35,693 nucleotides of DNA from a virus (IMGVR_UViG_3300015610_000614:1-35693); one strand, 5' to 3'. Shown: positions 1,651 through 15,939, counted from the first letter of the stretch. Made by a program: numbers and translations. Notes: generated by a model not told the origin, from the letters alone.

Positions 1651-1653
1651 ATT

Positions 1654-1730: not shown

Positions 1731-1752
1731 ATCAAGTTAATATTTGGTATAC

Positions 1753-2157
1753 CTAAAATGGTATATCGTCGTCCCATGAATCATCTACGTGTTTAGCAGC
1801 AAACTCGTGTCCGTGATGCTTATCAAATACTTTGCCAAACACGTTATCTATACTATAGAAACTAGCGGGTTTTTTAGGTACTAAATCAGGATTAATATCC
1901 GTAGATTTATGCAGTTTAGGATCGTACTCTCCATCAGCCTCAGTTGATTTAGCTTCGGCTTTCTTTTTATACTTAGACTTAATAGCATCTACGATTAGAT
2001 CGTAGGAAAACTTCATATCAGTATTACCGACACACCAGATAATATAATCTGGATAGTTTTCCATAACCCAATGCCATGTATTACCTGAGTGTTTTCCAAA
2101 GGTAACACGATCCATACTATCTATGTCTTTTTTAATGTTACCAAAAGATGTTGCCAT
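1753..2157 (-). CDS. ExoX-C-terminal/DUF3820-like protein with SSB-like C-terminal tip
   Basis: DRVTFGKHSG...W...YPDYIIW motif; ends WDDDIPF. Confidence 0.7.
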   Translation of the reverse strand: MATSFGNIKKDIDSMDRVTFGKHSGNTWHWVMENYPDYIIWCVGNTDMKFSYDLIVDAIKSKYKKKAEAKSTEADGEYDPKLHKSTDINPDLVPKKPASFYSIDNVFGKVFDKHHGHEFAAKHVDDSWDDDIPF

Positions 2158-2266
2158 TTATATCCTTTACCATATATCAACGCCCTAGCGTCTCTATCAA
2201 CCCCACGGAATCTTTACGTATAGGGAATCGCCCCGACATCCTTTTATTAGCTAGGACGCTGATATA

Positions 2267-2343
2267 TGGTACCACTGACAGGACTCAAACCTGTAAATCT
2301 TTCCGTTCGTAGCGGAGTGCTGTATTCATTTAGCTACAGTGGT
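2267..2343 (-). tRNA. tRNA-Arg(ACG)
   Basis: TCCG-CTACGAA-CGGA arm; T-loop TTTGAGT; CCA. Confidence 0.88.
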
Positions 2344-2346
2344 ATT

Positions 2347-2423
2347 TGGTAGTGAGAGTGGGAGTCGAACCCACGATAGGTGGCTTATGAAACCACTGCC
2401 TTAAGCCTCTTAGCTATCTCACC
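2347..2423 (-). tRNA. tRNA with CAT anticodon (elongator Met or lysidine Ile2)
   Basis: GTGGT-TTCATAA-GCCAC arm, TTCGACT, CCA; identity not resolvable by eye. Confidence 0.85.
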
Positions 2424-2463
2424 AAAATTTAAAAGTATCAACTACATTTTATTTAATTATATT

Positions 2464-2538
2464 TGGTACACCTTGACGGTTTCGAACCGCCGACCCTCTC
2501 TGTGTAAAAGAGACGCTCTACCCCTGAGCTAAAGGTGC
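2464..2538 (-). tRNA. tRNA-Val(TAC)
   Basis: TCTCT-TTTACAC-AGAGA arm, TTCGAAA, CCA. Confidence 0.92.
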
Positions 2539-2630
2539 TTATTTTATTTTACATCCGAGAGATTGAGCCTCTACAACTGTCTGCTCTAGCGTACCAGTAT
2601 GTAGACTGCGGTACGCTACTACGTAAGTGT

Positions 2631-2870
2631 TCATTGGCACTTGATACCTTGGCCATTTTCGTCTAGAACTTGACGCGCTTGGCCTTGCTCGCCGACTACA
2701 TGCTTATATCCAGCAATGCAACGAGTTTCAGTAAGGCCATTTACACCATATGAGAAATCGTTATTCCTAGGAGCTGCGGCTACTAGTATGACCATTGCCA
2801 CAACAGCAATTAGCATAATAAGTTCAGTAACAGTGAAGCCCTTGTTAGCGCGTTTCATATTCTTTCTCAA
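2631..2870 (-). CDS. small protein with type IV prepilin N-terminal cleavage/methylation motif
   Basis: KG|FTVTELIMLIAVVAMVILVAA followed by a short Cys-pair domain. Confidence 0.75.
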   Translation of the reverse strand: MRKNMKRANKGFTVTELIMLIAVVAMVILVAAAPRNNDFSYGVNGLTETRCIAGYKHVVGEQGQARQVLDENGQGIKCQ

Positions 2871-3011
2871 TTGATTTAAAAATTTATTTTACAGGTAAAT
2901 CAGTACAAATTCAAGCTAGAAAATTTGGAAGTCCAGGTCAGGCTCGAATTGATGTATTTCCGCTTCAGGAGGAGGTCTAGACATCCTACCCGGCACCGAT
3001 GCTCAGCAGTT

Positions 3012-3085
3012 TGGAGACCCTAATTGGATTTTAACCAATCTAGCGGAGGTTGCAGTTCCGAGCCTAGTCACTCGGCCATAGGGTC
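3012..3085 (-). tRNA. tRNA-Cys(GCA)
   Basis: Loop CTGCAAC, acceptor GACCCTA/TAGGGTC, U discriminator, atypical T-loop TTAAAAT. Confidence 0.85.
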
Positions 3086-3208
3086 ATATTTGTTTGATTT
3101 TCTTATATTATCTTCTGCCGATAAGTATTGTAAGTTTTCTATAACATGTAGTCCAGAAACTAAAGTACCCCGTAACGGTATAATATGATCTACATGGTAA
3201 CCATATGG
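3068..3208 (-). pseudogene. HNH endonuclease remnant
   Basis: [41 protein letters not shown]; in-frame TGA just upstream; stop lies inside tRNA-Cys. Confidence 0.85.
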
Positions 3209-3260
3209 TCAGGTACTTCGTCTAGTACGGCGATATACAATTTTAGCGATTTAGGATCGT

Positions 3261-3446
3261 TCATGATAGGTATGACTTCAGTTTAGCAACAGTTAAGGTT
3301 TTTGGAATATCTGTATTAGTTAGTATAGATAAATACTCCCTTTCAATACGTTCCATATGGGCCTCTACATCTACTCCTTGAACAATTAGCCTATTCCGCA
3401 GTAAACGTCGTTCGTACTCTTTGTATAACTCTAGTTTAGTTTTCAT
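3261..3446 (-). CDS. hypothetical protein
   Basis: 61 aa, TAATG coupling to upstream ORF. Confidence 0.65.
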   Translation of the reverse strand: MKTKLELYKEYERRLLRNRLIVQGVDVEAHMERIEREYLSILTNTDIPKTLTVAKLKSYLS

Positions 3447-3577
3447 TAGTGCAACTTAATTACTTTAATCAGGATATACACAGGAATAATAAAAAATAGA
3501 GCAATTAGCACTCGGAAGCCTGTATTGATAATAATATCTTCAATATCAAACCAAAACTGACGCAGGCTTTTCCACAT
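3446..3577 (-). CDS. small membrane protein
   Basis: 43 aa (MWKSLRQF...LIALFFIIPVYILIKVIKLH) translated by hand; RBS GAGGA and promoter at 3604-3632. Confidence 0.6.
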   Translation of the reverse strand: MWKSLRQFWFDIEDIIINTGFRVLIALFFIIPVYILIKVIKLH

Positions 3578-3760
3578 AATTTAATCCTCGATTTAAAGAT
3601 TAAATTATACAGCCTTAAGTAAGGTTAAGCAAGCCTGAAAAAGCGAAGCCCAGGATATTCAGTCCCGGGCTTTCGCAGTGCTTGCAGGCACACCAGTTTT
3701 GTCAGAACCCGTTTGGGAATGCGCTACTGCAATAGCGTCTGTTTTGTGATGGATTTTAAT

Positions 3761-3837
3761 TGGTTGCGGAGGGTGGATTTGAACCACCGATCTCGGACTT
3801 ATGAGGACCGCGGGATGCCTGACTTCCCTACTCCGCT
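3761..3837 (-). tRNA. initiator-type tRNA-fMet(CAT)
   Basis: 1:72 mismatch, CTCATAA loop, TTCAAAT T-loop, CCA. Confidence 0.85.
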
Positions 3838-4100
3838 ATTTCATATTTATTACTTTTAGTAATATTATCTTTAGCTGTCAAATACTGTAAATTATTTAGT
3901 ACATGCAGACCACTAACTAGCTCACCTTGCAGAGGTATTATATGATCTACGTGGTATCCTAAAGGACAGTTACTGTAGAATAAAGATATTTTATCTAGTT
4001 CTGTCCACGGTACTACGCGCAATAAACTAGCCGCTTTATACTTAGCCTGTCTTTTAGGCTGTGTTTCTTTTCTGCAGGAATATCGGAAATTGAACTAGCG
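3828..4100 (-). pseudogene. HNH endonuclease remnant (track ORF 3828..4022 is its C-terminal part)
   Basis: ...[45 protein letters not shown]; frame extends upstream to a TAG with no start; stop inside tRNA-fMet. Confidence 0.8.
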
Positions 4101-4133
4101 TATTTGTCGGCGTACATAGTATTTAAGTAAATT

Positions 4134-4210
4134 TGGCTACCCGGGAAGGACTCGAACCTTCAACCTTTGATTTTGGAGATCACTGCTACTGCCAATTGAG
4201 CTACCGAGTA
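4134..4210 (-). tRNA. tRNA-Trp(CCA)
   Basis: Loop CTCCAAA, TTCGAGT, G discriminator, CCA. Confidence 0.9.
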
Positions 4211-4213
4211 ATA

Positions 4214-4408
4214 TTATTTTGTAAAGTAATTAATCAGCGTACCTATTTTGTCAGCATAGGCACCTATAACAAGTAACATACCTACAGCAAACACTGTTCC
4301 AGCAGCAATCACTTTACTAGTCGCCGCTGTACTAGAAATGTTCAGTGTAATAATTTCTAGAGTAAGTATCTTTAGTTTGAATTCGTAAGTAGTATTTTCA
4401 GTTGTCAT
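4214..4408 (-). CDS. small membrane protein
   Basis: 64 aa with hydrophobic C-terminal segment. Confidence 0.6.
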   Translation of the reverse strand: MTTENTTYEFKLKILTLEIITLNISSTAATSKVIAAGTVFAVGMLLVIGAYADKIGTLINYFTK

Positions 4409-4415
4409 AATACTA

Positions 4416-4499
4416 TGGAGGAAGATAACTGAATCGAACAGTCACCGTTTCCAATGGCAGGGATTTCAAGTCCCCTTTGCTCCCAGAGCGCTATCTTCC
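4416..4499 (-). tRNA. tRNA-Ser(TGA)
   Basis: Loop CTTGAAA, long variable arm, CCA. Confidence 0.88.
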
Positions 4500-4521
4500 T
4501 TAAAATCTATTACACTATTAA

Positions 4522-4611
4522 TGGTGGTAGGACAAGGATTCGAACCTTGGCAGCTATCTCTAACTGGCTACTGTTTAGCAAACAGGCACATTTCCACTCT
4601 GTCAGCCTACC
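4522..4611 (-). tRNA. tRNA-Ser(GCT)
   Basis: Loop TTGCTAA, long variable arm, CCA. Confidence 0.9.
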
Positions 4612-4694
4612 AATATGTCAGTTTCGTGGATAAATAATCTATATCCCCGAAACTTGGAGTCGAACCAAGAAGTAAGTATTATTATCAACAATAG
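4612..4694 (-). ncRNA. Y RNA (YrlA-like) element A, truncated
   Basis: 5' TGTTGA...TTACTTC then T-arm CTTGG-TTCGACT-CCAAG and long hairpin; 3' GTTAC strand missing. Confidence 0.5.
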
Positions 4695-4706
4695 TTTTAA
4701 AATATG

Positions 4707-4803
4707 ACCGAGAACTACTAAAACGAGTGCCGACTCGAACGGCTAAGTTTTCTTTTTGAGAGAAATTATCAACCAATGATGTAATCGTTTTAATCACTAC
4801 GGT
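4707..4803 (-). ncRNA. Y RNA (YrlA-like) element B
   Basis: ACCG-TAGTG...TAAAACGA-TTACATC...GCCG-TTCGAGT-CGGC...TCGTTTTA...TTCT-CGGT. Confidence 0.65.
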
Positions 4804-4813
4804 GTATTTAATA

Positions 4814-4898
4814 ACCTGTAACATGCAAAACACTGACTGCCTTTCGGCAAATGGTTAGAATTAAGAGTTCTAGAAGTAAGTGTTTTTATCAACAAGGT
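4814..4898 (-). ncRNA. Y RNA (YrlA-like) element C
   Basis: ACCT-TGTTG...AAAACAC-TTACTTC...GTGTTTT...GTTAC-AGGT; internal TGCC-GAAA-GGCA hairpin. Confidence 0.7.
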
Positions 4899-4907
4899 TT
4901 GAGAATA

Positions 4908-4974
4908 TACTGTAACAAGTATAGCAGCACGTTTTTACACCGAAAGTAGAAGTATCTGCTAAAAACAACAAGTA
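4908..4974 (-). ncRNA. Y RNA (YrlA-like) element D, minimal
   Basis: TACT-TGTTG...TAGCAG-ATACTTC...CTGCTA...GTTAC-AGTA inside a perfect 15-bp stem (4896-4910/4972-4986). Confidence 0.65.
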
Positions 4975-4989
4975 TATTCTCAAACCCTC

Positions 4990-5680
4990 GTCAGGATAAG
5001 AGGCACCAGATTACCGCAAGCATACGAAGCGTTACGGAAGTCGACTGACTACGAACATTCGATTGGCCTAATCGAATGGGTACTGGATTTTTACATCGTT
5101 TTGCCGAGGACTGACTCACTCGTTAAGCCGGGCGATTTAGCCGGTTACTCCACGATTTTTACCGAAATTATTGCCGCGTTTAGGCCTCAGTTTTGTAGCA
5201 CCTAGAGTGGTTTCCTGCTCGAAGATGCATCTGGCTTCGGAATAAAATAACACCACTGCCTATAATATATCGAAGGACTCGCTTCCTATAAGCTAACTCT
5301 GACTGGTTACATGGATTGACTATGCTTTAAATACTTGTCCAATTGCATAGTTTCGTGTGGATTTATATTGCGGTTTCGTTTAGCTTGCTCACCGATATTA
5401 CTCGATAGGGTATCTCTCCCTATTATCTATGATGGTACGCTACGCAACTAAGTTTCTATGTTTTACATCCCCGAAACTATAAGATGTTGCCCCTAACTCA
5501 TCTCGACTGGCTACGCACATACCGGACGTTGGCACCCGGTAACGGTATAGGGTTCCTAGATTATAGCTCTAGGCCGCATTGACAGTACCCTTCGACTGGC
5601 TGACTACAGTTCATATAAGCAGGGATTTACACGGTAGCTAATTGACGGTGGTAGCAATTAAGCCTCTGCCGAGGCACCGC
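4990..5680 (-). ncRNA. putative large structured ncRNA downstream of Ro60
   Basis: About 690 nt without an ORF in the track; long-range helices 5072-5085/5583-5595 and 5347-5355/5472-5480; motif GTAG(T/C)CAGTCGA three times. Confidence 0.55.
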
Positions 5681-5686
5681 ACATTC

Positions 5687-7012
5687 TTAAATAGAGAATT
5701 CCTTCTCTAGAGCTTGAATGTAATCAATAGATGCTTCGGAGAAGCCGGTGATGGTTTCCCACTCACCGCTATTGATACCGTTTTGGTATGTACCTACATT
5801 TAGGAAGTAGCCCTTATCGCCACCGTAAGCCTTAGGACCGCGAACACGATCATGCGATTGTTCATCAGTGATGACAATAATACGATCAGATTTGCTATCA
5901 GCAAACTGGCTTAGCGACTCGCCTAGCCTAGTACCAGTACAGTGTTGGCTGTTCTTAATAGCATCGGCTAGAGCGAACCCTCGATGGGCAGGGATACGTA
6001 GTGCGTGACCACTGAAGCTGTAGATTTCTACTTCTTCGCAGATTTCACGGCAAAGCATACCAAGTGCTAGAATAGCATCCTGACGGGTTAGGTCAGACTT
6101 TGCACTTACAGGAACACCGAAAGTGCTGCTAGACACGTCTAGGTAGAGCTTAGTCTTACCAGGAAGCTTTTCACAAGTTGCAAGCGAGCGAATCATCATG
6201 TCTTCTAGCATATCCTCAAACTGAGGAACGATACGAGCTGCTGCAATGTAGCGGAAAGGAAGAACACGCGAAGCATCCACTTCCTTTGCGTATGCACGAA
6301 TCATAGATTCGTCAATACCGGCCTGTACCATATTACGAAGATTACGAAGGAAAGCAAGAGCACCAAGCTTACGTTCCGCCATTAGACGCTCAAACGTTTC
6401 CTTCTTATCAGCGCCCGCAGATAGCTGGGTTTCCCAAGTATCAGGAGTCTTCAGTTGCTGATTTGCTACTTTACGGAAAAGTTCTGCCTGCTCAACAGAG
6501 GTAGGCTTAACGTGAGTTAGGAACATAACATCACGGATACGAATAGCAGCAGAGTTACGGTCGTACTTTGCAAGTTGGTATTCGTTGAACTTACCGAAGG
6601 CCTTAGCTAGACCCTTCTTTACCTGGTTGCTGATAGGGGTCTTACCCTCAGACCAGTATAGAGATAGGAAGTCACCCATCTCGTCCGCACGCTGAATAAC
6701 GCTATTAAGCGTATCAGCGGTAAGCGCTGACTTACGAGCAAGCTCGCGAGCAAGCACTAGCGGAATATGACGCAGCTTAAACTTGCTACGTGCAGCGATC
6801 GCTAGGTTTTGCACAAACTTAGGATCGACCTTTGCAACCAGTTCCTTCACCAGTTGATGCGTGGTCTTGCCATCGACATAGAACTGATCTTGGAACAGTA
6901 GATTAGCTAGTACAAGGCGTACTAGTTGTTGTTCTTGAGGAATGCTACGAACAGCAGTACCGGCTGCATTAACAGTCATAGGAGCGGATACGCGACGATT
7001 GAAGCTACTCAC
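5687..7012 (-). CDS. rsr: Ro60/TROVE-domain ribonucleoprotein with C-terminal vWA domain
   Basis: FQDQFYVDG, KFNEYQLAKYDR, TPDTWETQLS, LGALAFLRNLRNM, RVLPFRYIAA, YLDVSSST (MIDAS-like), IIVITDEQS. Confidence 0.95.
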   Translation of the reverse strand: MSSFNRRVSAPMTVNAAGTAVRSIPQEQQLVRLVLANLLFQDQFYVDGKTTHQLVKELVAKVDPKFVQNLAIAARSKFKLRHIPLVLARELARKSALTADTLNSVIQRADEMGDFLSLYWSEGKTPISNQVKKGLAKAFGKFNEYQLAKYDRNSAAIRIRDVMFLTHVKPTSVEQAELFRKVANQQLKTPDTWETQLSAGADKKETFERLMAERKLGALAFLRNLRNMVQAGIDESMIRAYAKEVDASRVLPFRYIAAARIVPQFEDMLEDMMIRSLATCEKLPGKTKLYLDVSSSTFGVPVSAKSDLTRQDAILALGMLCREICEEVEIYSFSGHALRIPAHRGFALADAIKNSQHCTGTRLGESLSQFADSKSDRIIVITDEQSHDRVRGPKAYGGDKGYFLNVGTYQNGINSGEWETITGFSEASIDYIQALEKEFSI

Positions 7013-7059
7013 GATTTATTTCCTTTTTGATTAATTTAAGAATATATTATATAGTTAAA

Positions 7060-7188
7060 ACAGGTAACAAACAAGACAGAATTTTTAGCGCTCTATCCGC
7101 TGAGCTACCTTGGCTTTCGGCCTCGGGATGGATTCGAACCATCGACCTCTCCATTAGCAGTGGAAGTAACTGTCTTAATCAACACTGT
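7060..7188 (-). ncRNA. Y RNA (YrlA-like) element E, complete permuted tRNA-like domain
   Basis: ACAG-TGTTG..AAGACAG-TTACTTC; T-arm GATGG-TTCGAAT-CCCATC; acceptor stem closed by GAAA loop; D-arm GCTC-AGCGGATA-GAGC; CTGTCTT..GTTAC-CTGT. Confidence 0.85.
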
Positions 7189-7201
7189 TTATAAAATATT
7201 T

Positions 7202-7332
7202 GCCGAGAATAAGTTAAATAGGCTTGTTTGAGACTACTATCTTACCATTAGATGACACTTAAAGTAAGTGCTAGGAATCGAACCTAGATTCGCAGTTTTG
7301 GTTTAAAGAAGTAACTATTTATGCACTACGGC
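7202..7332 (-). ncRNA. Y RNA (YrlA-like) element F, complete permuted tRNA-like domain
   Basis: GCCG-TAGTG..AAATAG-TTACTTC; T-arm CTAGG-TTCGATT-CCTAG; closed acceptor CACTTA/TAAGTG; D-arm ATCT-AATGGTA-AGAT; CTATTT..TTCT-CGGC. Confidence 0.85.
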
Positions 7333-7436
7333 GAATTATTGGAAGCGACGTATACCTAACGATCACTAGGATCGACCAAGACTTCCTTTGATATACGTTA
7401 TTACTGTGTTCTTGTCACACGCGATCACAAACTTAA

Positions 7437-7553
7437 AGTCGGTAACGGTTAAAACTGGTAATTGCACCCATGCCCACTTGTGCACGACGGAATCGAACCG
7501 TCTAGGTTTTTTATTGCCGAAAAATAGAAGTAACAGTTTAGATCAACACGACT
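7437..7553 (-). ncRNA. Y RNA (YrlA-like) element G
   Basis: AGTCG-TGTTG..AAACTG-TTACTTC; T-arm GACGG-TTCGATT-CCGTC; CAGTTT..GTTAC-CGACT. Confidence 0.8.
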
Positions 7554-7772
7554 AATGTTAGAAAACATAATTCTCTAACATTAGCCTATGCGCATAGGCT
7601 AACGGGTCCGATGGGCAACCAGCCCAGGTGTACGTGCTCGGCATTCCAACTTACACACGTTTTATTTTTAACAAAAAGCTGCTGAGAATAACCGTGACAG
7701 TTATCTGGTCTTACTTTTAACGAGGCAGGACTAGTAATTCTCGTTGTCACTATTGTTTGCGATATATGACAC

Positions 7773-7858
7773 ACCGCGAATAATTTAGTGGTTACTTTAT
7801 AATAGAAGTAACTGATCTTAACAGAAAGTATTTAACTTTCTGCTACTCTCACTACAGT
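7773..7858 (-). ncRNA. Y RNA (YrlA-like) element H, degenerate
   Basis: ACTG-TAGTG...GTTACTTC...ATTCG-CGGT with inserted hairpin; no T-arm. Confidence 0.45.
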
Positions 7859-7972
7859 AGCTTTTAGTTTAAATAAAAACTAGCACGTAAGTTCCATGGA
7901 GCAGGATTTAACCAGAAAGGAGACATTTTACGTGAAAGGCCTGATAGGACCTATCCTTACGTGCTAGTATAT

Positions 7973-8048
7973 TGGTGGAACCCGATGGACTCGAACCATC
8001 AACGCACCGCTTAAGAGGCGGGCCTTTAGCCAGTTAAGTTAAGGTTCC
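7973..8048 (-). tRNA. tRNA-Lys(CTT)
   Basis: CCGC-CTCTTAA-GCGG arm, TTCGAGT, CCA. Confidence 0.9.
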
Positions 8049-8050
8049 AG

Positions 8051-8182
8051 TTAATCTTTATTCTTCTTACCGAAGGCCATCTTAGCCTTCACTTGCTTCA
8101 TGCGTTCAGCCGCATTAGCCTTTTGGTTACGAGTGTATTCTTCGGCCTTAGCCTTGTTAGATTCAATATCACGAAAGTACAT
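8051..8182 (-). CDS. small basic hypothetical protein
   Basis: 43 aa MYFRDIESNKAKAEEYTRNQK... translated by hand; RBS GAGG. Confidence 0.6.
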   Translation of the reverse strand: MYFRDIESNKAKAEEYTRNQKANAAERMKQVKAKMAFGKKNKD

Positions 8183-8206
8183 TATAACCTCTTTAGTAGA
8201 AAAATC

Positions 8207-8282
8207 TGGCTCCGAAGGTAGGGATCGAACCTACGACAAACGCATTAACAGTGCGCCGCACCTACCTCTGTGCTACTTCGGA
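8207..8282 (-). tRNA. tRNA-Asn(GTT)
   Basis: Loop CTGTTAA, TTCGATC, G discriminator, CCA. Confidence 0.92.
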
Positions 8283-8288
8283 ATTGTT

Positions 8289-8363
8289 TGGCGGTATGTA
8301 CGAGGATCGAACTCGTGTATCAGCCGTGACAGGGCTGTGTAATAACCATTATACGAACACACC
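8289..8363 (-). tRNA. tRNA-Asp(GTC)
   Basis: CAGCC-CTGTCAC-GGCTG arm, CCA. Confidence 0.92.
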
Positions 8364-8364
8364 G

Positions 8365-8439
8365 TGGTATCCCATTGGGGTTTTGATCCCCACTCAATAG
8401 TTTGAAGGACTATCGGCCACACCAGCTGCCTCATGGGAC
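8365..8439 (-). tRNA. tRNA-Glu(TTC), atypical
   Basis: ATAGT-CCTTCAA-ACTAT arm (C at position 33), T-loop ATCAAAA, CCA. Confidence 0.75.
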
Positions 8440-8613
8440 ATATTTATTCTTTTTGCTTAAATTATCTTTAGCACTAAGATATTGTAAATTTTCTAATACA
8501 TGTAAACCACTAACTAATTCACCGTTTAAAGGAATTATATGATCTACGTGCATTCCTTCTGGTCTATTTCTATAAAACTCATCTATTTTGTCTAAATCAG
8601 CCCAGCTAGGTAT
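8431..8613 (-). pseudogene. HNH endonuclease remnant
   Basis: [46 protein letters not shown]; nearby ATG out of frame; stop inside tRNA-Glu. Confidence 0.85.
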
Positions 8614-8775
8614 TGCATATTAATTCCTCATTTAAAGATATATTATATATCTCTTTAAGTCAGAAATCAAGATGAAAATTAGGCAGTCAGCTCGGGCTCT
8701 CTTTCTGTGACTATTAAGAACGCTATTCTTTCGTTGCGCTAGGCAAGTACTGGGAACCGCTGTTCACCTAATATT

Positions 8776-8852
8776 TGGTACTGGATTAGGGATTCGAACC
8801 CTATATCTTAGCCTTATCAAGACTCTGCTTATGCCGCTTAAGCTTCTCCAGT
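8776..8852 (-). tRNA. tRNA-Ile(GAT)
   Basis: Loop TTGATAA, TTCGAAT, CCA. Confidence 0.9.
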
Positions 8853-8857
8853 ATATA

Positions 8858-8934
8858 GGGCAGAGGAGGATGGATTCGAACCATCGAATGCCGGCTTCAA
8901 AAACCGGTGTCTTAGGCCTCTTGACGACTCCCCA
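8858..8934 (-). tRNA. tRNA-Gln(TTG), ends CCC rather than CCA
   Basis: CCGGT-TTTTGAA-GCCGG arm, T1 start, G discriminator. Confidence 0.88.
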
Positions 8935-8984
8935 ACAGAACAATTATTATATTCTATTGAATAAACAATTTCAAGTTTAAATTT

Positions 8985-9085
8985 TGGTACGGGGGGTGGG
9001 AATCGAACCCACATTAGCCGCCTTATCTGGACGGTTCTTACAGAGGTATAAGCTCTGCCCTGAGGCCATTATTAGAAACCCCCGC
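8985..9085 (-). tRNA. atypical 101-nt tRNA-Ile(TAT)-like RNA with a second anticodon-like arm
   Basis: Acceptor GCGGGGG/CCCCCGT-A-CCA; arm 1 loop CTTATAC; arm 2 CCGTC-CAGATAA-GGCGG; normal T-arm. Confidence 0.7.
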
Positions 9086-9092
9086 ACTGATA

Positions 9093-9287
9093 TTACTTCA
9101 CAACCTTACCACGAATTTCACCAACCTTATAAGCCTTCTTAAGCATCCTAGCAATTTCGATGCAATGCTTAAGATGCATAGTACTACGATAGTTACCAAA
9201 CTCGTAGTAAGAGTTCTCACGCAGCCACTTAGCAAGTGCCACATCGGACATATTAATGAAATTCAGCTTTTCAAAATCATCAAACAT
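9093..9287 (-). CDS. hypothetical protein
   Basis: 64 aa directly behind promoter 9308-9336. Confidence 0.6.
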   Translation of the reverse strand: MFDDFEKLNFINMSDVALAKWLRENSYYEFGNYRSTMHLKHCIEIARMLKKAYKVGEIRGKVVK

Positions 9288-9530
9288 TTTTCAGAAACAA
9301 GAGTTAAATTATACTCATATTTGCTTTCAAAATCAAGTTCAAAATTTTAACCATATAATAGCATACAGATATAAGTTTTTGTGGCTTTACCCACTGGCAC
9401 TCGGTGTAATAAATATGCAAACTTCAGTTTCTAAAACTGTCGGGATTCCAGCCCGCTTTCCCTTGATGGAATGGTCTTAGCGCAAATAATAGGACTTGTA
9501 AGCCGAAGTTTGCGTCTATATGCTATTATA

Positions 9531-9606
9531 TGGTTCCGGCACTAGGAATCGAACCCAGATAAGTGGAGTACAAAACCACTGTAATATGCCATTATACGAT
9601 ACCGGA
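9531..9606 (-). tRNA. tRNA-Thr(TGT)
   Basis: AGTGG/CCACT stem with TGT centred in loop; TTCGATT; CCA. Confidence 0.8.
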
Positions 9607-9607
9607 A

Positions 9608-9680
9608 TAGTCGAATCGGATAGGATTTTCACCTATACTTTTCAGTATTGTCTACCTGCCTCTAGTTGGGCTACCGATTC
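9608..9680 (-). ncRNA. tRNA-like RNA lacking an anticodon arm
   Basis: Acceptor GAATCGG/CCGATTC, D-arm GCC/GGC, hairpin ATACT-GAAA-AGTAT, T-like arm ATAGG-TGAAAAT-CCTAT; no anticodon stem, no CCA. Confidence 0.55.
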
Positions 9681-10011
9681 TAGTGTTGAGTCCTTCGACT
9701 AGGAAACGAGTTTTAGGTCTTGGTTCGTTTCACGTATACCTCAATAGCGTAGTAATTTTAGACAGCTAACCTATTTCGCTGTTTATGGCAGGTCTTTAGT
9801 CGAGCCTACTTGTCCGTATTCTTTCAACGGTGAGCTGATAGCTGTACCATACACCATAATTTATGTCTACTCAATATCAGCTATCCCACGCCGTCGGGGA
9901 ATTACTGAAGGCCCGTGGCCTTAGAAGTAGTTGCCGCTAATCGTTCCCCTAGCCCGGCAAGGCAGAGCGCTATTCCCTTAGGGGGACAAAGCGTCGAATA
10001 GACATAAATTA

Positions 10012-10088
10012 TGGTAGAGCCACTGGGATTCGAACCCAGGTCTTACACCTTAAAAGGGTGATGTTATGAACCGCTTAACTATAGCTCC
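10012..10088 (-). tRNA. tRNA-Lys(TTT)
   Basis: CACC-CTTTTAA-GGTG arm, TTCGAAT, CCA. Confidence 0.92.
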
Positions 10089-10350
10089 AATATACTAATT
10101 TAGATGCCCTAACCTTTTGTAATTAGGAACCGGATTTGATAATGCGGCCGCATTTCCGTGTGTTTACGTTTACACCAGCATCTAAATTAGGACATTTTGT
10201 CCTCATTTCGCTTTTGCTTGCGACGACTCAGTTTATGAGTCCCTGCTTTCCTAAAGAGCGAAGCAGCAACAAACTGATTGCGCTCTTTAGGAATTTTCTT
10301 TTTCTTCACATCAGACATATATTATATTCCTTTTCTATATCTGACGCAAG

Positions 10351-10575
10351 TCAGAAATTATTTTGCTTTACAATATGCTGATCATACCACTCCTGTTCGC
10401 TAGGGTACATAGGCATCATAGCTACTTCGCCTTCCGTAGGAAGTTTAGGTGGATTACTAGGCTTTACGGTGATTACTGATTTTTCAGCATCAGGAAAGTT
10501 CAGCTCAACTTCCGTGTCAGCACTAAACATAGCAAGAATCTTAATTGCTTGACTAACTTTCATTTCATTTCTCAC
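10351..10575 (-). CDS. hypothetical protein
   Basis: 74 aa behind promoter 10589-10617. Confidence 0.65.
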   Translation of the reverse strand: MRNEMKVSQAIKILAMFSADTEVELNFPDAEKSVITVKPSNPPKLPTEGEVAMMPMYPSEQEWYDQHIVKQNNF

Positions 10576-10755
10576 TAATTGAACAATTATTATAAATCAA
10601 ATTATCGCAATCAGCAAGTTCAATTTTTTGAAGCCTTTTGATTGCTGTCGTTTTCCACGACAGAAATAATATTATGCCAAAAGCAATCAAAAAGATCAAG
10701 ACAGAAATTTAAAGGCTGCGCCGTTTCCGAACACAGCCTTTAAGAAGAGAAATTT

Positions 10756-11175
10756 TTAGGGTTTGGCGCCGGCGACCGGAACCTCGTCTAAAATAATGCG
10801 TGCTACAGGCTCTTCAATAGTGTAGAACCTATTACACCTGTGTGACATTGTAATAACTACCGCGCTAGTAGTAGCACCTACAATTGACATGAGAAAGTTA
10901 TTTCCCTGGTTTAAACGATCGTAACGACTTAGGGTCAACGCATTACCATCGTCATAAGCATGAATACCTAAATATGTACAGTCTCGACGTACTGTATAAT
11001 GTCCCGAAAGTATTAGAGTATTAGTTACTCGATCTTTCATACTTTGCTCTATAACGAACTCTGCGACTACAGGGTTGGTCTTAGCTTCGTAATCTGGATA
11101 AAGAAATACGCACAGCGTACTAATAATTAATACGAGAGCTGTAATTACTAAATGTACTCTAATATGGATTTTCAT
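10756..11175 (-). CDS. membrane-anchored hypothetical protein
   Basis: N-terminal TM segment, two further Cys; coupled to upstream ORF by TAATG. Confidence 0.7.
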   Translation of the reverse strand: MKIHIRVHLVITALVLIISTLCVFLYPDYEAKTNPVVAEFVIEQSMKDRVTNTLILSGHYTVRRDCTYLGIHAYDDGNALTLSRYDRLNQGNNFLMSIVGATTSAVVITMSHRCNRFYTIEEPVARIILDEVPVAGAKP

Positions 11176-11405
11176 TATACTGGAATCTTGCTGCTAAGTA
11201 ATTTAAATATCCACAAGGCCATAGAAACTACAGAACTTCCTAGAACTATTAAGCCCCAGCGCAAAGCGCTGTCTCTATCTTTTTCTAGGGATATTAGTCT
11301 GTCTTCCATGTCATGTAATTTCTTCTGTGCCAGTGCAAATGCAACGGCATCTTCAGTACTTAACTGAGAAGGGTGAAAGTCCTTATCAGACATATGTGCT
11401 CCCAA
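11175..11405 (-). CDS. small coiled-coil plus TM protein (XhlA/holin-like topology)
   Basis: LHDMEDRLISLEKDRD then RWGLIVLGSSVVSMALWIFKLL. Confidence 0.6.
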   Translation of the reverse strand: MGAHMSDKDFHPSQLSTEDAVAFALAQKKLHDMEDRLISLEKDRDSALRWGLIVLGSSVVSMALWIFKLLSSKIPV

Positions 11406-11473
11406 CGATTAATTATAGTATTAAGTCACTAATCCATCCTTATTTTAATTAATTTATAGTTTTAAGACGAACA

Positions 11474-11502
11474 AAAGCCCGGTAAATACTACTATACCGG
11501 GC
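11474..11502 (-). terminator. intrinsic terminator
   Basis: GCCCGGT/ACCGGGC hairpin followed by TTTT on minus strand. Confidence 0.7.
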
Positions 11503-11514
11503 AACATAAAAATC

Positions 11515-11589
11515 TGGTGCTGATTGAAAGAATCGAACTTTCATCACTCCCATACCAAAGGAGTATAATAACCGCTATACTAAATCAGC
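11515..11589 (-). tRNA. tRNA-Thr(GGT)
   Basis: Acceptor GCTGATT/AATCAGC, loop TTGGTAT, CCA. Confidence 0.88.
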
Positions 11590-11950
11590 TATTTCTATGT
11601 TCAGTTTATGCTTAAGGCTTATTCACGTGAAAACCAGAAGACTTATTTGTTCTGAACATAGAGATAGCTGCTGCCCTACCTCACGGACTGACTACCGTCC
11701 TCCTGCTTCCGCGGAGAGTAATATAAGGAACAGCTAGAGCCGTACTGCTGTCGTCGTCTGCTTTCTAAGCACACTCTCCGTTCGTCTTTCGATAAACGAA
11801 GTCATGTAGAGACTTTCAGGGCCGCGGGCACCTGCGTATTCAATTAATGCGCCATCCACTAGACCATTTCAATTATCTTAGGTGTTTAGCCTACACAGGA
11901 GTATTGAAGCTCCCGTAGTCTTCGCAACCTTTCGGACTTGGCCAATGGCC
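11590..11950 (-). ncRNA. putative structured ncRNA (~360 nt)
   Basis: No ORF in track; several hairpins including 19-bp 11586-11604/11652-11670; contains GTAGTCAGTC. Confidence 0.4.
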
Positions 11951-11952
11951 AC

Positions 11953-12567
11953 TTATTTTATTTCGTATTTGTTATTCTTTTTTAGGTTATCTTCTTGAAA
12001 CAAATACTGTAAATTTTCTAATGTATGTAGACCGCTTACTAATTTACCTCTTAAAGGAAGTATGTGATCTACGTGCATTCCTTCTGGACAATTATTATAG
12101 AATTCTCTAATTTTATCTAAGTTAGCCCAAGAAGGTGTTCTTTCTTTTATGTTTAATTTTTGTTCTTTTGAATTAAAAGTGTGGCAAGTTTTACATTCAT
12201 GCCTTACTTCTTTTAGTCCCTTATTACTATTTAAACCAAAACGGCTAAACGGTAATATATTACCACACTGATGACATAGCTTATGATCTATCAATTCTAA
12301 TAATACATATCTCCAAGAGGATTTTCCTCCTGTTAAAAATCCGGGTGGATTATCAAGTAATGGAGCTATATGTTCTGCTAAAGCGTCCTTTACAGGTTTC
12401 TTGCTTTTATAACCTAGCTTATAAGAGGCGTCTTCGAGATTTAATGTATTTATTACACTATCTATCAATGAATAAATAGTTATTCCATTATATCCTCGTA
12501 TAGCTTTCTTTATTTGAAGATTTGGGTCTAAATGTAAAGTTTCTATTATTTCTTGTGTAAAGTTCAT
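11953..12567 (-). CDS. HNH homing endonuclease (intact)
   Basis: CxxC pairs (CHQC, CKTC) and HVDHILPLRGKLVSGLHTLENLQYL..DN..KNNKY. Confidence 0.9.
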   Translation of the reverse strand: MNFTQEIIETLHLDPNLQIKKAIRGYNGITIYSLIDSVINTLNLEDASYKLGYKSKKPVKDALAEHIAPLLDNPPGFLTGGKSSWRYVLLELIDHKLCHQCGNILPFSRFGLNSNKGLKEVRHECKTCHTFNSKEQKLNIKERTPSWANLDKIREFYNNCPEGMHVDHILPLRGKLVSGLHTLENLQYLFQEDNLKKNNKYEIK

Positions 12568-12637
12568 ATTTTCAATCCCCTATGTATATAAATATTATAA
12601 CATATGGGTACCGAAAAATCAATACCAAGATTTTTAA

Positions 12638-12712
12638 TGGTGGAGGCCGAGAAAATCGAATTCTTCTAGTCACGATCCGTGCAAGGGAACGCCGCAGCCC
12701 ACTGCTGCCCCC
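12638..12712 (-). tRNA. tRNA-Ala(TGC)
   Basis: G3:T70 pair, loop CTTGCAC, short D-arm, CCA. Confidence 0.85.
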
Positions 12713-12905
12713 AATAATTAAATACTCTAGTTTACTACCCGGAATAAAGTTTCATCGTCATCTACTCCGTATGCTATTCCCGCCGGGTCATGACTCCCTG
12801 ATTACCGTGAATAGCACTTAGACTTGACTACACGTACACGCGTTTCGGTGTAGTTCCCATCTAGCAATGTCTTTTGCGTTCAGACTAGCTAAAGTATTTA
12901 ATTAT

Positions 12906-12981
12906 TGGTCTCCGCTGCAAGGCTCGAACTTGCGACCACATGCTCCCAAAGCACGCATTCTTCCAACTGAACTAAACGGAG
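12906..12981 (-). tRNA. tRNA-Pro(TGG)
   Basis: Loop TTTGGGA, C1:G72, TTCGAGC, CCA. Confidence 0.92.
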
Positions 12982-13178
12982 ATTGTGCCGGTTACGCTTC
13001 CCCAGATAACGAGGCAATTCCGGCGTCCAGGTTGATATGGACCGCTGTCATACACGCCGCTTTATATTTCACAAGACGGGCTTTTGACTATACATATACT
13101 GATCGGATACTACGTAAGTATCACTATTATTTTTATTACTGGGAAATATAACCCGAAGCGCTGAGGCGGCTTTTTACC

Positions 13179-13436
13179 TTAATCGTACATATTACCTTGG
13201 GGTACATTAGGAATATCTAAGCTATCAATATAACTCAACTGATACTCAAACTTTGGTAGATAACCAAGCACAGGATCATAGGTAATATTATAATCTAAAT
13301 TACGCAGCTTTGCAAGTTCAGAATTAACGGCCCGCCTATTTGCACGTTCATCAGAACGCATAAAAAAGTGACCGGTCTTAGTATGCTTACCGCGTGAGCA
13401 GTGCTGACAGGAGCAAGACTTTGGACTGATTTTCAT
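13179..13436 (-). CDS. hypothetical protein with N-terminal Cys cluster
   Basis: SCSCQHCSRG; 4-bp overlap with upstream ORF. Confidence 0.7.
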   Translation of the reverse strand: MKISPKSCSCQHCSRGKHTKTGHFFMRSDERANRRAVNSELAKLRNLDYNITYDPVLGYLPKFEYQLSYIDSLDIPNVPQGNMYD

Positions 13437-13756
13437 GTATGTTCAATCACCTTAATAGGAGTATGACTAATTGCAATAGCACAAGCCTTACAAGGACAAG
13501 CCATACCGTAGGAACCATCTCGCTTAACACGAGTTACACGAATTTTATATGCTTTTTCTAGATCTTTACAGCGATTAATCGCATCAATCTCACAATGCAA
13601 ATAAGCATAGCCATATGCAGAATACCCTTTTCCGGCCATTTTGTTATACTTATCCTGCATAGGATGTGTTTTAATATAACTGTTTTTTCCGATAGAAAGA
13701 ATTCGTCCTTTCTTATCATAAATAATTGCAGTCATCTGTTGTTGTTGCTTAGCCAT
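13433..13756 (-). CDS. CMP/dCMP-type zinc-dependent deaminase-like protein
   Basis: LHCEIDAI (HxE) and ACPCKAC (PCxxC). Confidence 0.85.
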   Translation of the reverse strand: MAKQQQQMTAIIYDKKGRILSIGKNSYIKTHPMQDKYNKMAGKGYSAYGYAYLHCEIDAINRCKDLEKAYKIRVTRVKRDGSYGMACPCKACAIAISHTPIKVIEHT

Positions 13757-13813
13757 TTGCTTTTCTCACTGTCTAAGCAATTATTATATTCTTATTTTAA
13801 GAATTAATCAAGA

Positions 13814-14170
13814 TTAAATATTTACTTCTTCAATAGCGGATTGAATAAAATATACACGCCAAGACTCACATACGCGAGGAATACCAGTTTCGTACCCATA
13901 ACCAACTAGGTCATAGATTACGTCTGATACAATGTCATATTGATCATCAATGCACTCAGCATTGCGATCTTCAGCAGGAAGCATATTGTAAATAGCAATT
14001 ACGTGCTCTTCATTAATATCTTCCTGACGCATATTCTTACGCAGGTAATCACAAACTGCTGCACGCCAACGGCATTCATCTAGAGTAAGACCGTCGAAGC
14101 GCTTAGTATTGTAACAATCACCATCATTTTCCCAAGAGGTGATCTCAATAGCGTAACCAGCCTTAATCAT
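13814..14170 (-). CDS. hypothetical phage protein
   Basis: 118 aa behind promoter 14202-14230. Confidence 0.75.
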   Translation of the reverse strand: MIKAGYAIEITSWENDGDCYNTKRFDGLTLDECRWRAAVCDYLRKNMRQEDINEEHVIAIYNMLPAEDRNAECIDDQYDIVSDVIYDLVGYGYETGIPRVCESWRVYFIQSAIEEVNI

Positions 14171-14240
14171 TTAAATGCCTTTATCAATTAATTAAAGAAT
14201 TATTATAGCGTTATCTAAGTAATCAATCAAGATTGAAATT

Positions 14241-14323
14241 TGGTACGGCCGAAGGGATTCGAACCCTTATGCACTAGGCGGGAAATTTTAAGTTTCCTGT
14301 GTATTCCATTCCACCACGACCGC
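14241..14323 (-). tRNA. tRNA-Leu(TAA)
   Basis: GGAAA-CTTAAAA-TTTCC arm, variable arm, CCA. Confidence 0.92.
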
Positions 14324-14333
14324 GTTAAACTTT

Positions 14334-14417
14334 TGGTAGGCAAGGAGAGACTCGAACTCTCAATCCTTTCGGCGACGGCTTCTAAAACCGTAGTGTATTC
14401 CATTCCACCACTTGCCC
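14334..14417 (-). tRNA. tRNA-Leu(TAG)
   Basis: ACGGT-TTTAGAA-GCCGT arm, variable arm, CCA. Confidence 0.92.
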
Positions 14418-14426
14418 ATTAAATTC

Positions 14427-14498
14427 TGGAGCGGGCGACAGGCATCGAACCTGCATCTTTCGGCTTGGAAGGCCAAACGTATTCCTCTAACCGCACGC
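14427..14498 (-). tRNA. tRNA-Gly(TCC), reduced D-arm
   Basis: Loop CTTCCAA, U discriminator, CCA, only 72 nt. Confidence 0.8.
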
Positions 14499-14504
14499 AT
14501 TGTA

Positions 14505-14724
14505 AAAACATTGTCAGTGACACAGGACTCGAACCTGTACCTACTTTGGCCAAACTCCAGTAAATGACATTAATAATATACAACCTGTAGCTAATCAGTG
14601 TATATTAAACGGCCCTAGAAAGTCCTGCCGGGCCCCTAGCGTTATACCGTGTCGTACTGTGCATATCAGTGCAATGAGTATTAATTAGTGTTCTACCAGT
14701 TAAACTAGTCACCGACAATGTTTT
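14505..14724 (-). ncRNA. tRNA-like RNA with 17-bp extended acceptor stem and large domain replacing the anticodon arm
   Basis: 14708-14724 pairs with 14505-14521 (one G-U); D-arm GTTT-AACTGGTA-GAAC; T-arm ACAGG-TTCGAGT-CCTGT. Confidence 0.7.
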
Positions 14725-14820
14725 CATTTTACCATAATTTAAACAGCCTAACAGGCAGGCACAAGCTCAATAGTTCGCCTACGAAGTGGACTCTCACCAC
14801 ACACTTGGCTGTTTAAATTA

Positions 14821-14906
14821 TGGTGGAGCTACAAGGACTCGAACCTCACGCTGCCAGCCCTACTTATATAGCAACCGGGTTACAGCCGGCCGTAGGGAAA
14901 AGCTCC
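14821..14906 (-). tRNA. tRNA-Tyr(GTA)-like RNA lacking a D-arm
   Basis: Acceptor GGAGCT/AGCTCC-A-CCA, GCCGG-CTGTAAC-CCGGT arm, T-arm TTCGAGT; only ~9 nt where the D-arm should be. Confidence 0.65.
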
Positions 14907-15314
14907 AATTACCACTTCATCCTCAAGCGGTCAAGAGAACGCTAATTTCTTAGTCGCCAAGCATATATCGCGACATAATAAGTTTTTGGTATTCACTCTA
15001 CCAGAGGGACGGGTTTCGCAATCCACACGCCGCACTTTAGTAACCTTATAGGAAACGCTGCATCGGTCACGCTAGCGAGTTACCATCGTCTCGCGGCTAG
15101 ATTCCAAGTCTAGCGGGTGTCCTCATTTACGCATCGGAGTATTCGTCGTAAAATTAAAGTAGTTTACGAACACTGCTGATTCAAATATCAATCAGCAACT
15201 TAAGTATTATACGCTGTTTTTATAACACAATCAAGATGAAAATTTCAAATCTTCAAAGCCAGATCGCCTTAATCATCAACAGAACATATATTATATATCA
15301 AAGGATAACTAATT

Positions 15315-15512
15315 TCAAGATTGATTTTTGAAAGCCCTAATCGCAGCAGCATCAAGGCTAGCATATTCTCGAAACTTGTCGCGTCCGTTATCATCGTAGC
15401 ACTTAGACGCTAGTTCCTCTAGATGTACTAGCTGCTCAATTGTAAGCATATTGCAGGCTAGAAATCTACTCATGAAAGCATCAATAAGGAATTCTTTTGT
15501 ATAGCCTGCCAT
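15315..15512 (-). CDS. hypothetical phage protein
   Basis: 65 aa, RBS GAGA, typical phage composition. Confidence 0.7.
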   Translation of the reverse strand: MAGYTKEFLIDAFMSRFLACNMLTIEQLVHLEELASKCYDDNGRDKFREYASLDAAAIRAFKNQS

Positions 15513-15550
15513 ATATTCTCAATCAATTAAAACATTATTTTATAATGTTT

Positions 15551-15929: not shown

Positions 15930-15939
15930 AGTTATTAGT

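Follow-up and report, generated by a model that had tools for sequence, protein, structure and literature searches.

RNA helices anchored on tRNA ends in a phage tRNA gene cluster: possible RNase III processing sites around exchangeable small RNAs

Long stems at the tRNA ends of the cluster

The DNA analysed here (the window, 35,693 nucleotides, IMGVR_UViG_3300015610_000614:1-35693) comes from an uncultured wastewater phage whose tRNA gene cluster spans 17 kb of a 99.7-kb genome. The five best inverted repeats found by a search of positions 1-17000 are five tRNA-linked stems, the same five that an earlier note on this DNA had picked out; their arms measure 22, 21, 20, 20 and 18 nt, where the note had given 21, 17, 17, 16 and 18 bp. 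Across the 99.7 kb, a strand-neutral scan returned ten inverted repeats with Watson-Crick pairing over 16 bp or more, and seven fall inside the 17-kb cluster. Strand and spacing suggest that the stems sit in one polycistronic tRNA-cluster transcript. From the 3' ends assigned by ARAGORN to tRNA-Arg (2267), tRNA-Thr (9531), tRNA-Lys (10012) and tRNA-Pro (12906), it follows that these four stems start at tRNA position 72-74, i.e. in the discriminator/CCA, in agreement with the previous claim that they begin at the encoded CCA. The helix abuts the acceptor stem, with direct stacking, and leaves the cloverleaf undisturbed.

The Arg module (2168..2271, minus strand) consists of two 22-nt arms (2168-2189 and 2250-2271) separated by 60 nt of cargo (2190-2249). 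Its 5' arm starts in the ACCA of tRNA-Arg-ACG (2267-2343), and directly downstream of its 3' arm lie the ribosome-binding site and ATG (2157) of ORF 1753-2157; both mismatches of this stem are G-U pairs on the minus (tRNA) strand, as had been stated. The Thr module (9349..9535, minus strand) has 21-nt arms (9349-9369 and 9515-9535) with 145 nt between them; the 5' arm lies on the CCA of tRNA-Thr-TGT (9531-9606), the cargo (9370-9514) contains a conserved core at about 9412-9486, and a sigma-70-like promoter is found downstream of the module at 9336-9308. In the Lys module (9853..10015, minus strand), 20-nt arms (9853-9872 and 9996-10015) enclose 123 nt (9873-9995) and the 5' arm lies on the CCA of tRNA-Lys-TTT (10012-10088); a conserved 68-nt RNA gene (9792..9859, minus strand) starts 1-2 nt past the 3' arm, its 5' side being delimited by the stem. 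The Pro module (12711..12908, minus strand) likewise has 20-nt arms (12711-12730 and 12889-12908), here 158 nt apart (cargo 12731-12888), with the 5' arm on the CCA of tRNA-Pro-TGG (12906-12981). A degenerate tRNA-Ala-like gene (about 12640-12712) begins with the final two G of its 3' arm; the tRNA-Ala named in the earlier note is called by neither ARAGORN nor Rfam in the window and is called at the same position in three related contigs (L063, L015 and L047). Finally, the Tyr-like module (14731..14824, minus strand) carries perfect 18-nt arms (14731-14748 and 14807-14824) around 58 nt of cargo (14749-14806), and its 5' arm lies on the CCA of a tRNA-like gene (14824-14907), whose match to the tRNA clan is only weak (18.6 bits).

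Comparable stems are anchored on the other end of tRNA genes. One near Lys (10089..10196, minus strand; arms 10178-10196 and 10089-10107, about 70 nt between) has a 3' arm that stops one base short of tRNA-Lys-TTT. Another (11586..11670, minus strand; arms 11652-11670 and 11586-11604, 47 nt between), whose 3' arm covers the first 4 nt of tRNA-Thr-GGT, is kept in the related contig L061. A third module (14505..14724, minus strand), with a stem of 17-19 bp (14708-14724 and 14505-14521) enclosing 186 nt, stops just ahead of tRNA-Gly-TCC and shows 93% identity in L061. The same cluster also encodes a phage Ro60 protein (5687-7012), 2.3-7.8 kb away from the modules, adjoined by a YrlA-like RNA at 7070-7176, the sole match to RF02553.

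Recurrence, pairing and cargo

Related phage contigs, retrieved via their Ro60 gene, served as the comparison set. A CCA-anchored stem of at least 16 bp occurs at 27 of the 407 tRNAs in these Ro60-encoding contigs versus 1 of 407 control anchors; the stems are thus present in related tRNA clusters, the opposite of the absence that the earlier note would have taken against its proposal. Stems anchored on tRNA 5' ends are as numerous (28 of 412, with no control anchor showing one), and therefore the 'locking' of the CCA, on which the note had centred, is half of the pattern. Such stems are missing from most of the Ro60-bearing loci retrieved, those whose Ro60 identity falls below about 49%. Long CCA-anchored stems are likewise absent from the 23 ARAGORN-called tRNAs of phage T5, from Acinetobacter phage YMC13/03/R2096 and from Aeromonas phage Aeh1; phage tRNA maturation in general can therefore do without the device.

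Stem length ranges from 17 to 26 bp and is most often 19-22 bp, which corresponds to roughly two helical turns. Each arm pairs with its own partner at 98.8% of positions 4-17 versus 47% with arms of other loci, and arms of different loci are 38% identical. GC content is 11% in the outer 8 bp and 30% in the inner 8 bp, and a loose motif, CCA-UAUUUUAG-YA, is common to the arms, which a pure model of length and pairing leaves unexplained. Non-Watson-Crick positions in 39 stems, read on the tRNA strand, comprise 41 G-U, 9 A-C and 19 other combinations (p=2.8e-6). In close relatives, the closing stem of Lys carries the compensatory double changes UA>AU and UA>CG and that of Thr the double change CG>UA, while the Pro stem changes via wobble only. 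Because of the G-U excess on the tRNA strand and these compensatory double changes, the structure under selection is RNA, and it is its pairing, rather than its sequence, that is selected, which upholds the earlier view that structure and not sequence is conserved.

The cargo behaves differently from the helix that closes it. Whole modules fold with z of about -5 against dinucleotide shuffles, and the enclosed domains alone are not unusually stable (z -1.6 to +1.5). The Thr, Lys and Pro cargos are RNAs conserved among close relatives, in which they show compensatory changes. The label 'ORF-free' is correct insofar as no sense ORF of at least 40 aa occurs, with mechanical GTG/TTG frames of 32-38 aa overlapping two modules. 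What did not survive is the enclosed domain as the constant part: cargo length varies from 3 to 174 nt, conservation with covariation is confined to close relatives, and the same type of CCA-anchored stem in relatives caps loops of merely 3-33 nt. In a 94%-identical relative the Tyr cargo is wholly exchanged, identity being 94% over the tRNA, 32% over the inner stem and cargo and 93% over the next module; in L063 the Lys module has retained its ACCA arm with the tRNA no longer adjacent. Cargo homologues were detectable in close relatives and none beyond them, and model R1, built from the Pro cargo, found no match in the T5 region (L060). Judged by these comparisons, the cargo is apparently lineage-specific and exchangeable, and the evidence supports the closing helix, tied to the exact tRNA termini, as the conserved element.

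A proposed processing route and its rivals

We consider it about an even chance that the stems are processing helices for host RNase III, which would free the tRNA ends and release stem-capped small RNAs. It is proposed that the 3' trailer of a tRNA, from the discriminator/CCA on, pairs with the stretch immediately preceding the next gene, often including the first bases of the next tRNA, and thereby closes the spacer into a single RNase III-sized duplex of 18-24 bp. Host RNase III would cut both strands at staggered positions around mid-helix, and the nearly pure A/U outer half (about 8-10 bp) would then melt. On the upstream tRNA a short single-stranded trailer would remain, open to 3' exonucleases; the RNA downstream, whether tRNA or mRNA, would carry a short leader, to be trimmed by RNase P in the case of a tRNA; and the inner half would remain as a terminal stem with a 3' overhang on the excised spacer, freed as a stable small RNA. 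In E. coli, RNase III contributes to maturing the tRNAs encoded by T4, and it cuts precursors of rRNA-tRNA operons in their double-stranded stems (PMC4810235). The phage genome (99.7 kb) has no match to the RNase III families PF14622 and PF00636, which are present in 8 of 14 control genomes. Two features of RNase III helices are present here, namely near-perfect double-stranded RNA of about 20 bp and arms that, on the tRNA strand, flank the spacer RNA and touch tRNA 3'/5' ends. Two RNAs of phage T5 have a related geometry: RNAIII (one of the 'stable RNAs with unknown functions' annotated in NC_005859) lies within a 20-bp helix, containing two U-G pairs, that runs from the GCCA end of the preceding tRNA-like RNA I to the first 5 nt of tRNA-His, and RNAIV lies within a 22-bp helix. 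Their RefSeq-annotated ends fall 8-13 bp inside the helices and leave 3' overhangs of 1-2 nt, the kind produced by RNase III; since the annotation starts tRNA-His one base after the 3' end of RNAIII, that end could also be a product of RNase P. Excision of the RNase III type is consistent with these mid-helix ends, with the AU-rich outer half and with helices 17-26 bp long.

The match of both helix ends to the mature tRNA ends within a few bases, where junction-specific enzymes would cut, could also be read in favour of folding clamps, a rather unlikely role that involves no cleavage of the helix. The spacer would be sequestered, the adjacent tRNAs would fold independently with their ends at a defined junction, RNase P, RNase E/G and RNase BN/Z plus exonucleases would cut at the junctions, and the whole stem would stay on the released spacer RNA. 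The direct stacking on the acceptor stem agrees with such a role, as does the AU-rich trailer, which is similar to the usual RNase E-type tRNA trailers (PMC5222698). However, the outer pairs include the CCA and, between Pro and Ala, the first G's of the next tRNA, so that those bases cannot remain on the spacer RNA, and the annotated ends of RNAIII and RNAIV lie well within their helices. A quite improbable alternative is that the modules are non-canonical Y RNAs whose long stems bind the phage's own Ro60 and tether or gate it. The stems occur in phages retrieved by their Ro60 gene, a YrlA-like RNA adjoins Ro60 here, and Y RNAs, of 80-130 nt, have a long 5'/3' stem bearing the Ro60 site (PMC4201824). 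Ro60, however, recognises a stem-bulge-stem with conserved bases (PMC12135203), and the helices of the window are uninterrupted, perfect and different at each locus, with no stem-bulge-stem among them; the cargo matches neither YrlA nor tRNA covariance models at E<=1-5 and shows no T-arm or D-arm. Moreover, stems are missing from most of the retrieved Ro60 loci, and T5 has the RNAIII/RNAIV helices and no annotated Ro60 gene in its tRNA region.

The inverted repeats might mainly be sites of recombination at the DNA level, comparable to PeSL cassettes in T4-type phages, to MITE-like repeats or to terminal inverted repeats, moving tRNA/small-RNA cassettes between phages; homology between relatives does stop exactly at the module borders, as at Tyr, the Lys module of L063 keeps its ACCA arm away from a tRNA, and the outer arms share a loose motif. 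We give this little probability: the strand-specific excess of G-U over A-C (41:9) and the compensatory changes show selection on a single-stranded sense molecule, the arms, unlike transposon ends, are too dissimilar between loci to be one repeat, and the promoter-like sites include none of the five 3' arms. The exchange of cassettes may instead follow incidentally from the AU-rich outer arms that the modules share. That the stems act as transcription signals, whether as terminators or through -10 elements concealed in the 3' arm, is very improbable indeed, even with TGnTAnnAT-like strings in some 3' arms and the promoter-like site downstream of the Thr stem. The arms are AU-rich and lack the GC-rich stem and U-tract of an intrinsic terminator; among 21 terminator-like sites, just one (14760-14746) reaches a stem arm, and it is a 5-bp hairpin within the Tyr module rather than the long stem; none of 60 promoter-like sites overlaps a 3' arm, and a promoter needs no perfect complementary copy up to 174 nt upstream.

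Beyond excision by RNase III, we tentatively suggest, as a rather unlikely possibility, that helices anchored on tRNA ends form a general platform for docking and expressing RNAs: any short insert would be transcribed along with highly expressed tRNAs, be excised precisely and emerge as a stable RNA capped by its stem. The cargo would then consist of fast-evolving effectors, swapped cassette-like between phages. Possible effectors include decoys or guides against host defences that target tRNA or sense RNA, or ligands for the phage Ro60 and RNA-repair proteins. That phage tRNA clusters matter for escaping host defences is illustrated by T5 tRNA-Lys, which acts against PARIS (PMC11464382). The cargo sequences provide a defined set of candidate phage small RNAs.

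Comparison with known systems

The modules can be compared with tRNA-miRNA genes of murine gammaherpesvirus 68: in both, a unit shaped like a tRNA runs directly into a hairpin about 20 bp long, and in the herpesvirus the processing of tRNA ends is thereby coupled to that by a double-strand RNase. The herpesvirus system is eukaryotic and uses RNase Z and Dicer, its hairpins are the product, and no tRNA follows downstream. Y RNAs and YrlA share with the modules a length of about 100-200 nt, a long stem formed from both ends and, since this cluster also encodes Ro60 and a YrlA-like RNA, the genomic setting. The stems of the window, however, are perfect duplexes sharing bases with adjacent tRNAs, and neither a bulged helix for Ro60 binding nor a mimic of a T-arm or D-arm occurs in their cargo. 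In the leader-trailer helices of rRNA operons and in T4 tRNA precursors, the flanks of a stable RNA in a polycistronic precursor also pair into a long duplex, and its cleavage by RNase III is the first maturation step (PMC4810235). In rRNA operons, however, the excised 16S or 23S rRNA is the purpose of the helix, whereas the known functional products in the phage cluster are the tRNAs on either side, and it is the enclosed RNA that varies. To our knowledge, CCA anchoring is no feature of the rRNA-operon or T4 tRNA-precursor helices.

The T5 RNAs come from a phage tRNA region as well. Like the modules of the window, RNAIII and RNAIV are small non-tRNA RNAs of 100-170 nt, encoded on the tRNA strand between tRNA genes, with a terminal helix that reaches the ends of the neighbouring RNAs. 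They differ in sequence, since blastn of the T5 RNAs against the cluster gave chance-level or tRNA T-arm matches only, and in setting: none of the 23 called T5 tRNAs bears a long CCA-anchored stem, whereas the stems are more numerous here and many cap very short loops in relatives.

Long helices at tRNA termini

The window, the initial 35.7 kb of a wastewater viral contig that is complete at 99.7 kb, carries a minus-strand tRNA cluster (57-16014) of 23 tRNAs as called by ARAGORN; a few extra tRNA-like genes were detected by Rfam or by eye alone, and small ORFs, an HNH endonuclease gene and many sigma-70-like promoters lie between the tRNAs. One tRNA (8779-8852, minus; Rfam 42.8 bits) was uncalled by ARAGORN, and the gene after the Pro stem (12640-12712, minus), with a loop resembling an Ala (UGC) anticodon and perhaps a G3-U70 pair, was uncalled by both ARAGORN and Rfam. 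The phage has its own Ro60/TROVE protein gene (5687-7012, minus; 441 aa, Pfam E=3.7e-15, phrog_850), directly upstream of which is a YrlA-like permuted tRNA-mimic RNA (7070-7176, minus; RF02553, 29.9 bits, below gathering score). At the cluster end, an ORF (170-703, minus) carries the HAD domain known from 'Swiss Army Knife' RNA repair proteins (PF18143, E=4e-23), and this ORF and Ro60 jointly suggest RNA repair or quality control as a theme. Another ORF within the cluster (13433-13756, minus; 107 aa) contains a cytidine/deoxycytidylate deaminase zinc-binding domain (PF00383, E=7e-6). A tRNA-Arg-ACG normally needs deamination of A34, and because this tRNA is encoded in the same cluster, the ORF may be a small TadA-like enzyme. 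The cluster layout resembles that of the phage T5 tRNA region; a tblastx comparison of the T5 20-48 kb region with this genome gave a single match, and a search for a cultured close relative via the neighbouring phosphoesterase reached a top identity below 40%.

The earlier note proposed that five tRNA CCA ends are each locked into a long stem, and this is borne out: the stems of the Arg (2168-2271), Thr (9349-9535), Lys (9853-10015), Pro (12711-12908) and Tyr-like (14731-14824) modules are the top five inverted repeats of the cluster, and all begin at tRNA position 72-74, the discriminator/CCA. The cloverleaf is kept intact, with the helix stacked directly onto the acceptor stem, and the whole modules, each comprising two arms and an enclosed spacer ("cargo"), fold with z of about -5. 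A genome-wide, strand-neutral scan found only 10 inverted repeats with 16 or more Watson-Crick pairs, seven of them inside the tRNA cluster. The window has three more long stems, these anchored at tRNA 5' ends, before tRNA-Lys-TTT, tRNA-Thr-GGT and tRNA-Gly-TCC. A promoter or terminator role of the arms was rejected as unsupported by a promoter/terminator scan.

Comparable stems were found in related tRNA clusters. Among 54 related viral loci collected using Ro60 as the handle, stems of at least 16 bp starting no more than 5 nt from the tRNA 3' end occur at 27 of 407 tRNAs, against 1 for control anchors placed inside tRNAs, and 5' end-anchored stems number 28/412 versus 0 for controls. The stem-bearing tRNA identities repeat across phages (Pro-TGG in seven phages, Lys-TTT, Tyr, Arg-ACG, Phe and Glu), and several stems bridge the CCA of one tRNA to the opening bases of the next, as in Pro>Ala (five phages), Pro>Gln, Tyr>Phe, Phe>Asp and Lys>Ser. 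The stems are 17-26 bp long (mode 19-22) and the enclosed part spans 3 to 174 nt, so the helix is the constant feature. The carriers are closer relatives with a Ro60 identity of about 49-65%; CCA-anchored long stems are absent from T5's own tRNAs, Acinetobacter phage YMC13/03/R2096 and Aeromonas phage Aeh1. An exact 14-mer scan of viral contigs with the commonest arm motif gave 117 matches, all by chance, with no upstream tRNA and no partner arm, and these are usable as a negative control only.

Across 23 CCA-anchored stems, arms pair at 98.8% with their own partners versus 47% with partners from other loci, and identity among the 5' arms is only 38%, which upholds the proposal that the arms are locus-specific and that structure is conserved over sequence. 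In a further detection, by Watson-Crick pairs alone and hence free of strand bias, the non-Watson-Crick positions of the stems on the tRNA strand comprise 41 G-U, 9 A-C and 19 others (binomial p=2.8e-6), a G-U share of 82% against about 55% expected, the latter being an estimate from the window GC skew (a small sense-strand excess of G over C). Closer relatives, taken from public assemblies and reached through the ORF at 10756-11175, display textbook covariation. In one of them, L062, the Lys closing stem has two double changes (UA to AU and UA to CG) plus one GC to GU, and the Thr stem a CG to UA double change; in another, L063, the three differing positions of the Pro stem all go via G-U intermediates. 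What is under selection is thus a single-stranded sense molecule, the transcript.

Enclosed cargo and its exchange

The enclosed domains were described previously as structured, a claim that holds in part. Close relatives share strongly conserved cores in the Thr, Lys and Pro cargos, and each alignment has 8 base pairs changed on both sides (closing stem and cargo together). These three cargos are genuine structured RNAs, a reading that finds no support beyond the close relatives. Folding energy of the cargo alone, however, has no excess stability, so "structured" is not claimable from energy, and the suggested covariance search was equally unproductive: model R1, built on the Pro cargo, recovers its three training sequences only and misses Pro>Ala spacers of equal size in more distant relatives. 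Pro>Ala spacers from six distant relatives were unalignable and gave no consensus structure (MAFFT/RNAalifold). Rfam, at gathering and E-value thresholds, has no family for any stem or cargo; the cargos of the Thr, Lys and Pro modules have no blastn match among 50,697 phage records, and blastn of all cargo against the 54 Ro60-phage loci gave self-matches only.

An unannotated RNA gene of 68 nt (9792-9859, minus) begins 1-2 nt beyond the Lys stem. It has no Rfam family match and has matches in about 50 phage records at 90-98% identity. These come from T4-like phages of Aeromonas, Enterobacter and Serratia, from Acinetobacter (about 98 kb) and Salmonella (about 72 kb) phages and from a Pseudomonas phage. 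The match is an unannotated stretch in all six records whose annotation was read, and in five it adjoins annotated tRNA genes. The RNA has a 46-nt core that hardly varies, whereas the closing stem differs yet pairs in 9/9 aligned sequences.

Between the window and the relative L061, identity is 94% in the Tyr-like tRNA, 32% in the inner stem plus cargo of the Tyr module and 93% in the module next to it; despite the 32% identity, the L061 Tyr module forms a perfect 20-bp stem of other sequence. The Lys module of L063 retains the ACCA arm but lies 157 nt away from a different tRNA-Lys, and in L062, where an ORF with a new tRNA-Lys has been inserted, the stem is still preceded by a 3' remnant of the old tRNA. 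The Tyr cargo replacement and these rearrangements indicate that the modules act as interchangeable cassettes that keep their helix. This exchange probably exploits the AU-rich outer arms common to the modules.

Two local observations accompany these comparisons. The L062 segment 1349-2150 holds the complete new tRNA-Lys and a 200-aa ORF that has a promoter of its own, ahead of the old tRNA-Lys leftover (T-arm plus acceptor strand), behind which the CCA-anchored stem is intact; the arrangement resembles the trace left by a homing-endonuclease-type insertion. The tRNA-Gly-TCC genes of the window (14427-14500) and L061 (6163-6236) are about 51% identical, with a flanking module at 93%, which looks as if one tRNA allele had taken the place of another at the module borders.

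Proposed processing and known systems

We propose, with about an even chance of being right, that the stems are putative processing helices for host RNase III. Their 17-26 bp length, AU-rich outer half (GC content 11% in the outer 8 bp, almost pure A/U, versus 30% in the inner 8 bp), acceptor stacking and simultaneous contact of two genes by one helix fit one binding site for RNase III that is cut, with a stagger, at its centre. After such a cut the weak outer half would melt, and the spacer RNA, capped by its stem, would part from a short 3' trailer and a short 5' leader. Since 11 nt separate the end of the Arg stem from an ORF start codon, the same cut could set an mRNA 5' end there, as happens in phage T7 early RNA. 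No RNase III gene was found in a search of the 99.7-kb phage genome, so the host enzyme would be needed; a phage-encoded double-strand RNA-binding protein was also looked for and none was found. The E. coli RNase III has a role in T4 tRNA maturation and cleaves stems of rRNA-tRNA operon precursors (PMC4810235).

Outside support for the RNase III reading is strongest in phage T5 (NC_005859). Its RNAIII (106 nt, RefSeq label 'stable RNA with unknown functions') is closed by a 20-bp helix with two U-G pairs (10279-10398), in which the 5' arm begins at the GCCA end of the tRNA-like RNA I and the 3' arm finishes within the first five bases of tRNA-His; RNAIV has a 22-bp helix (12827-12954). The RefSeq-annotated ends of both RNAs lie 8-13 bp inside the helices with 1-2 nt 3' overhangs, and the genomic helices extend beyond them.

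These ends are left unexplained, as are the outer pairs that belong to the tRNAs, if the helix is a clamp for folding only and cuts fall at the junctions, an account we regard as unlikely. A reading of the modules as Y RNA-type ligands of Ro60 gains appeal from the phage-borne Ro60 gene but is improbable; Y RNAs require a bulged, sequence-specific helix (PMC4201824, PMC12135203), whereas the window helices are perfect and locus-specific. Equally improbable is a primary role at the DNA level, as recombination joints, which the strand-specific wobble bias contradicts.

Small stable RNAs that lie in the tRNA clusters of phages are a known kind, as are helices processed by RNase III; the window modules are new members, without sequence relatives. 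The novelty lies in the comparative picture, in which a covarying helix sits on exact tRNA termini around replaceable cargo, a long closing helix at the RNA ends being the design that the modules share with T5 RNAIII and RNAIV.
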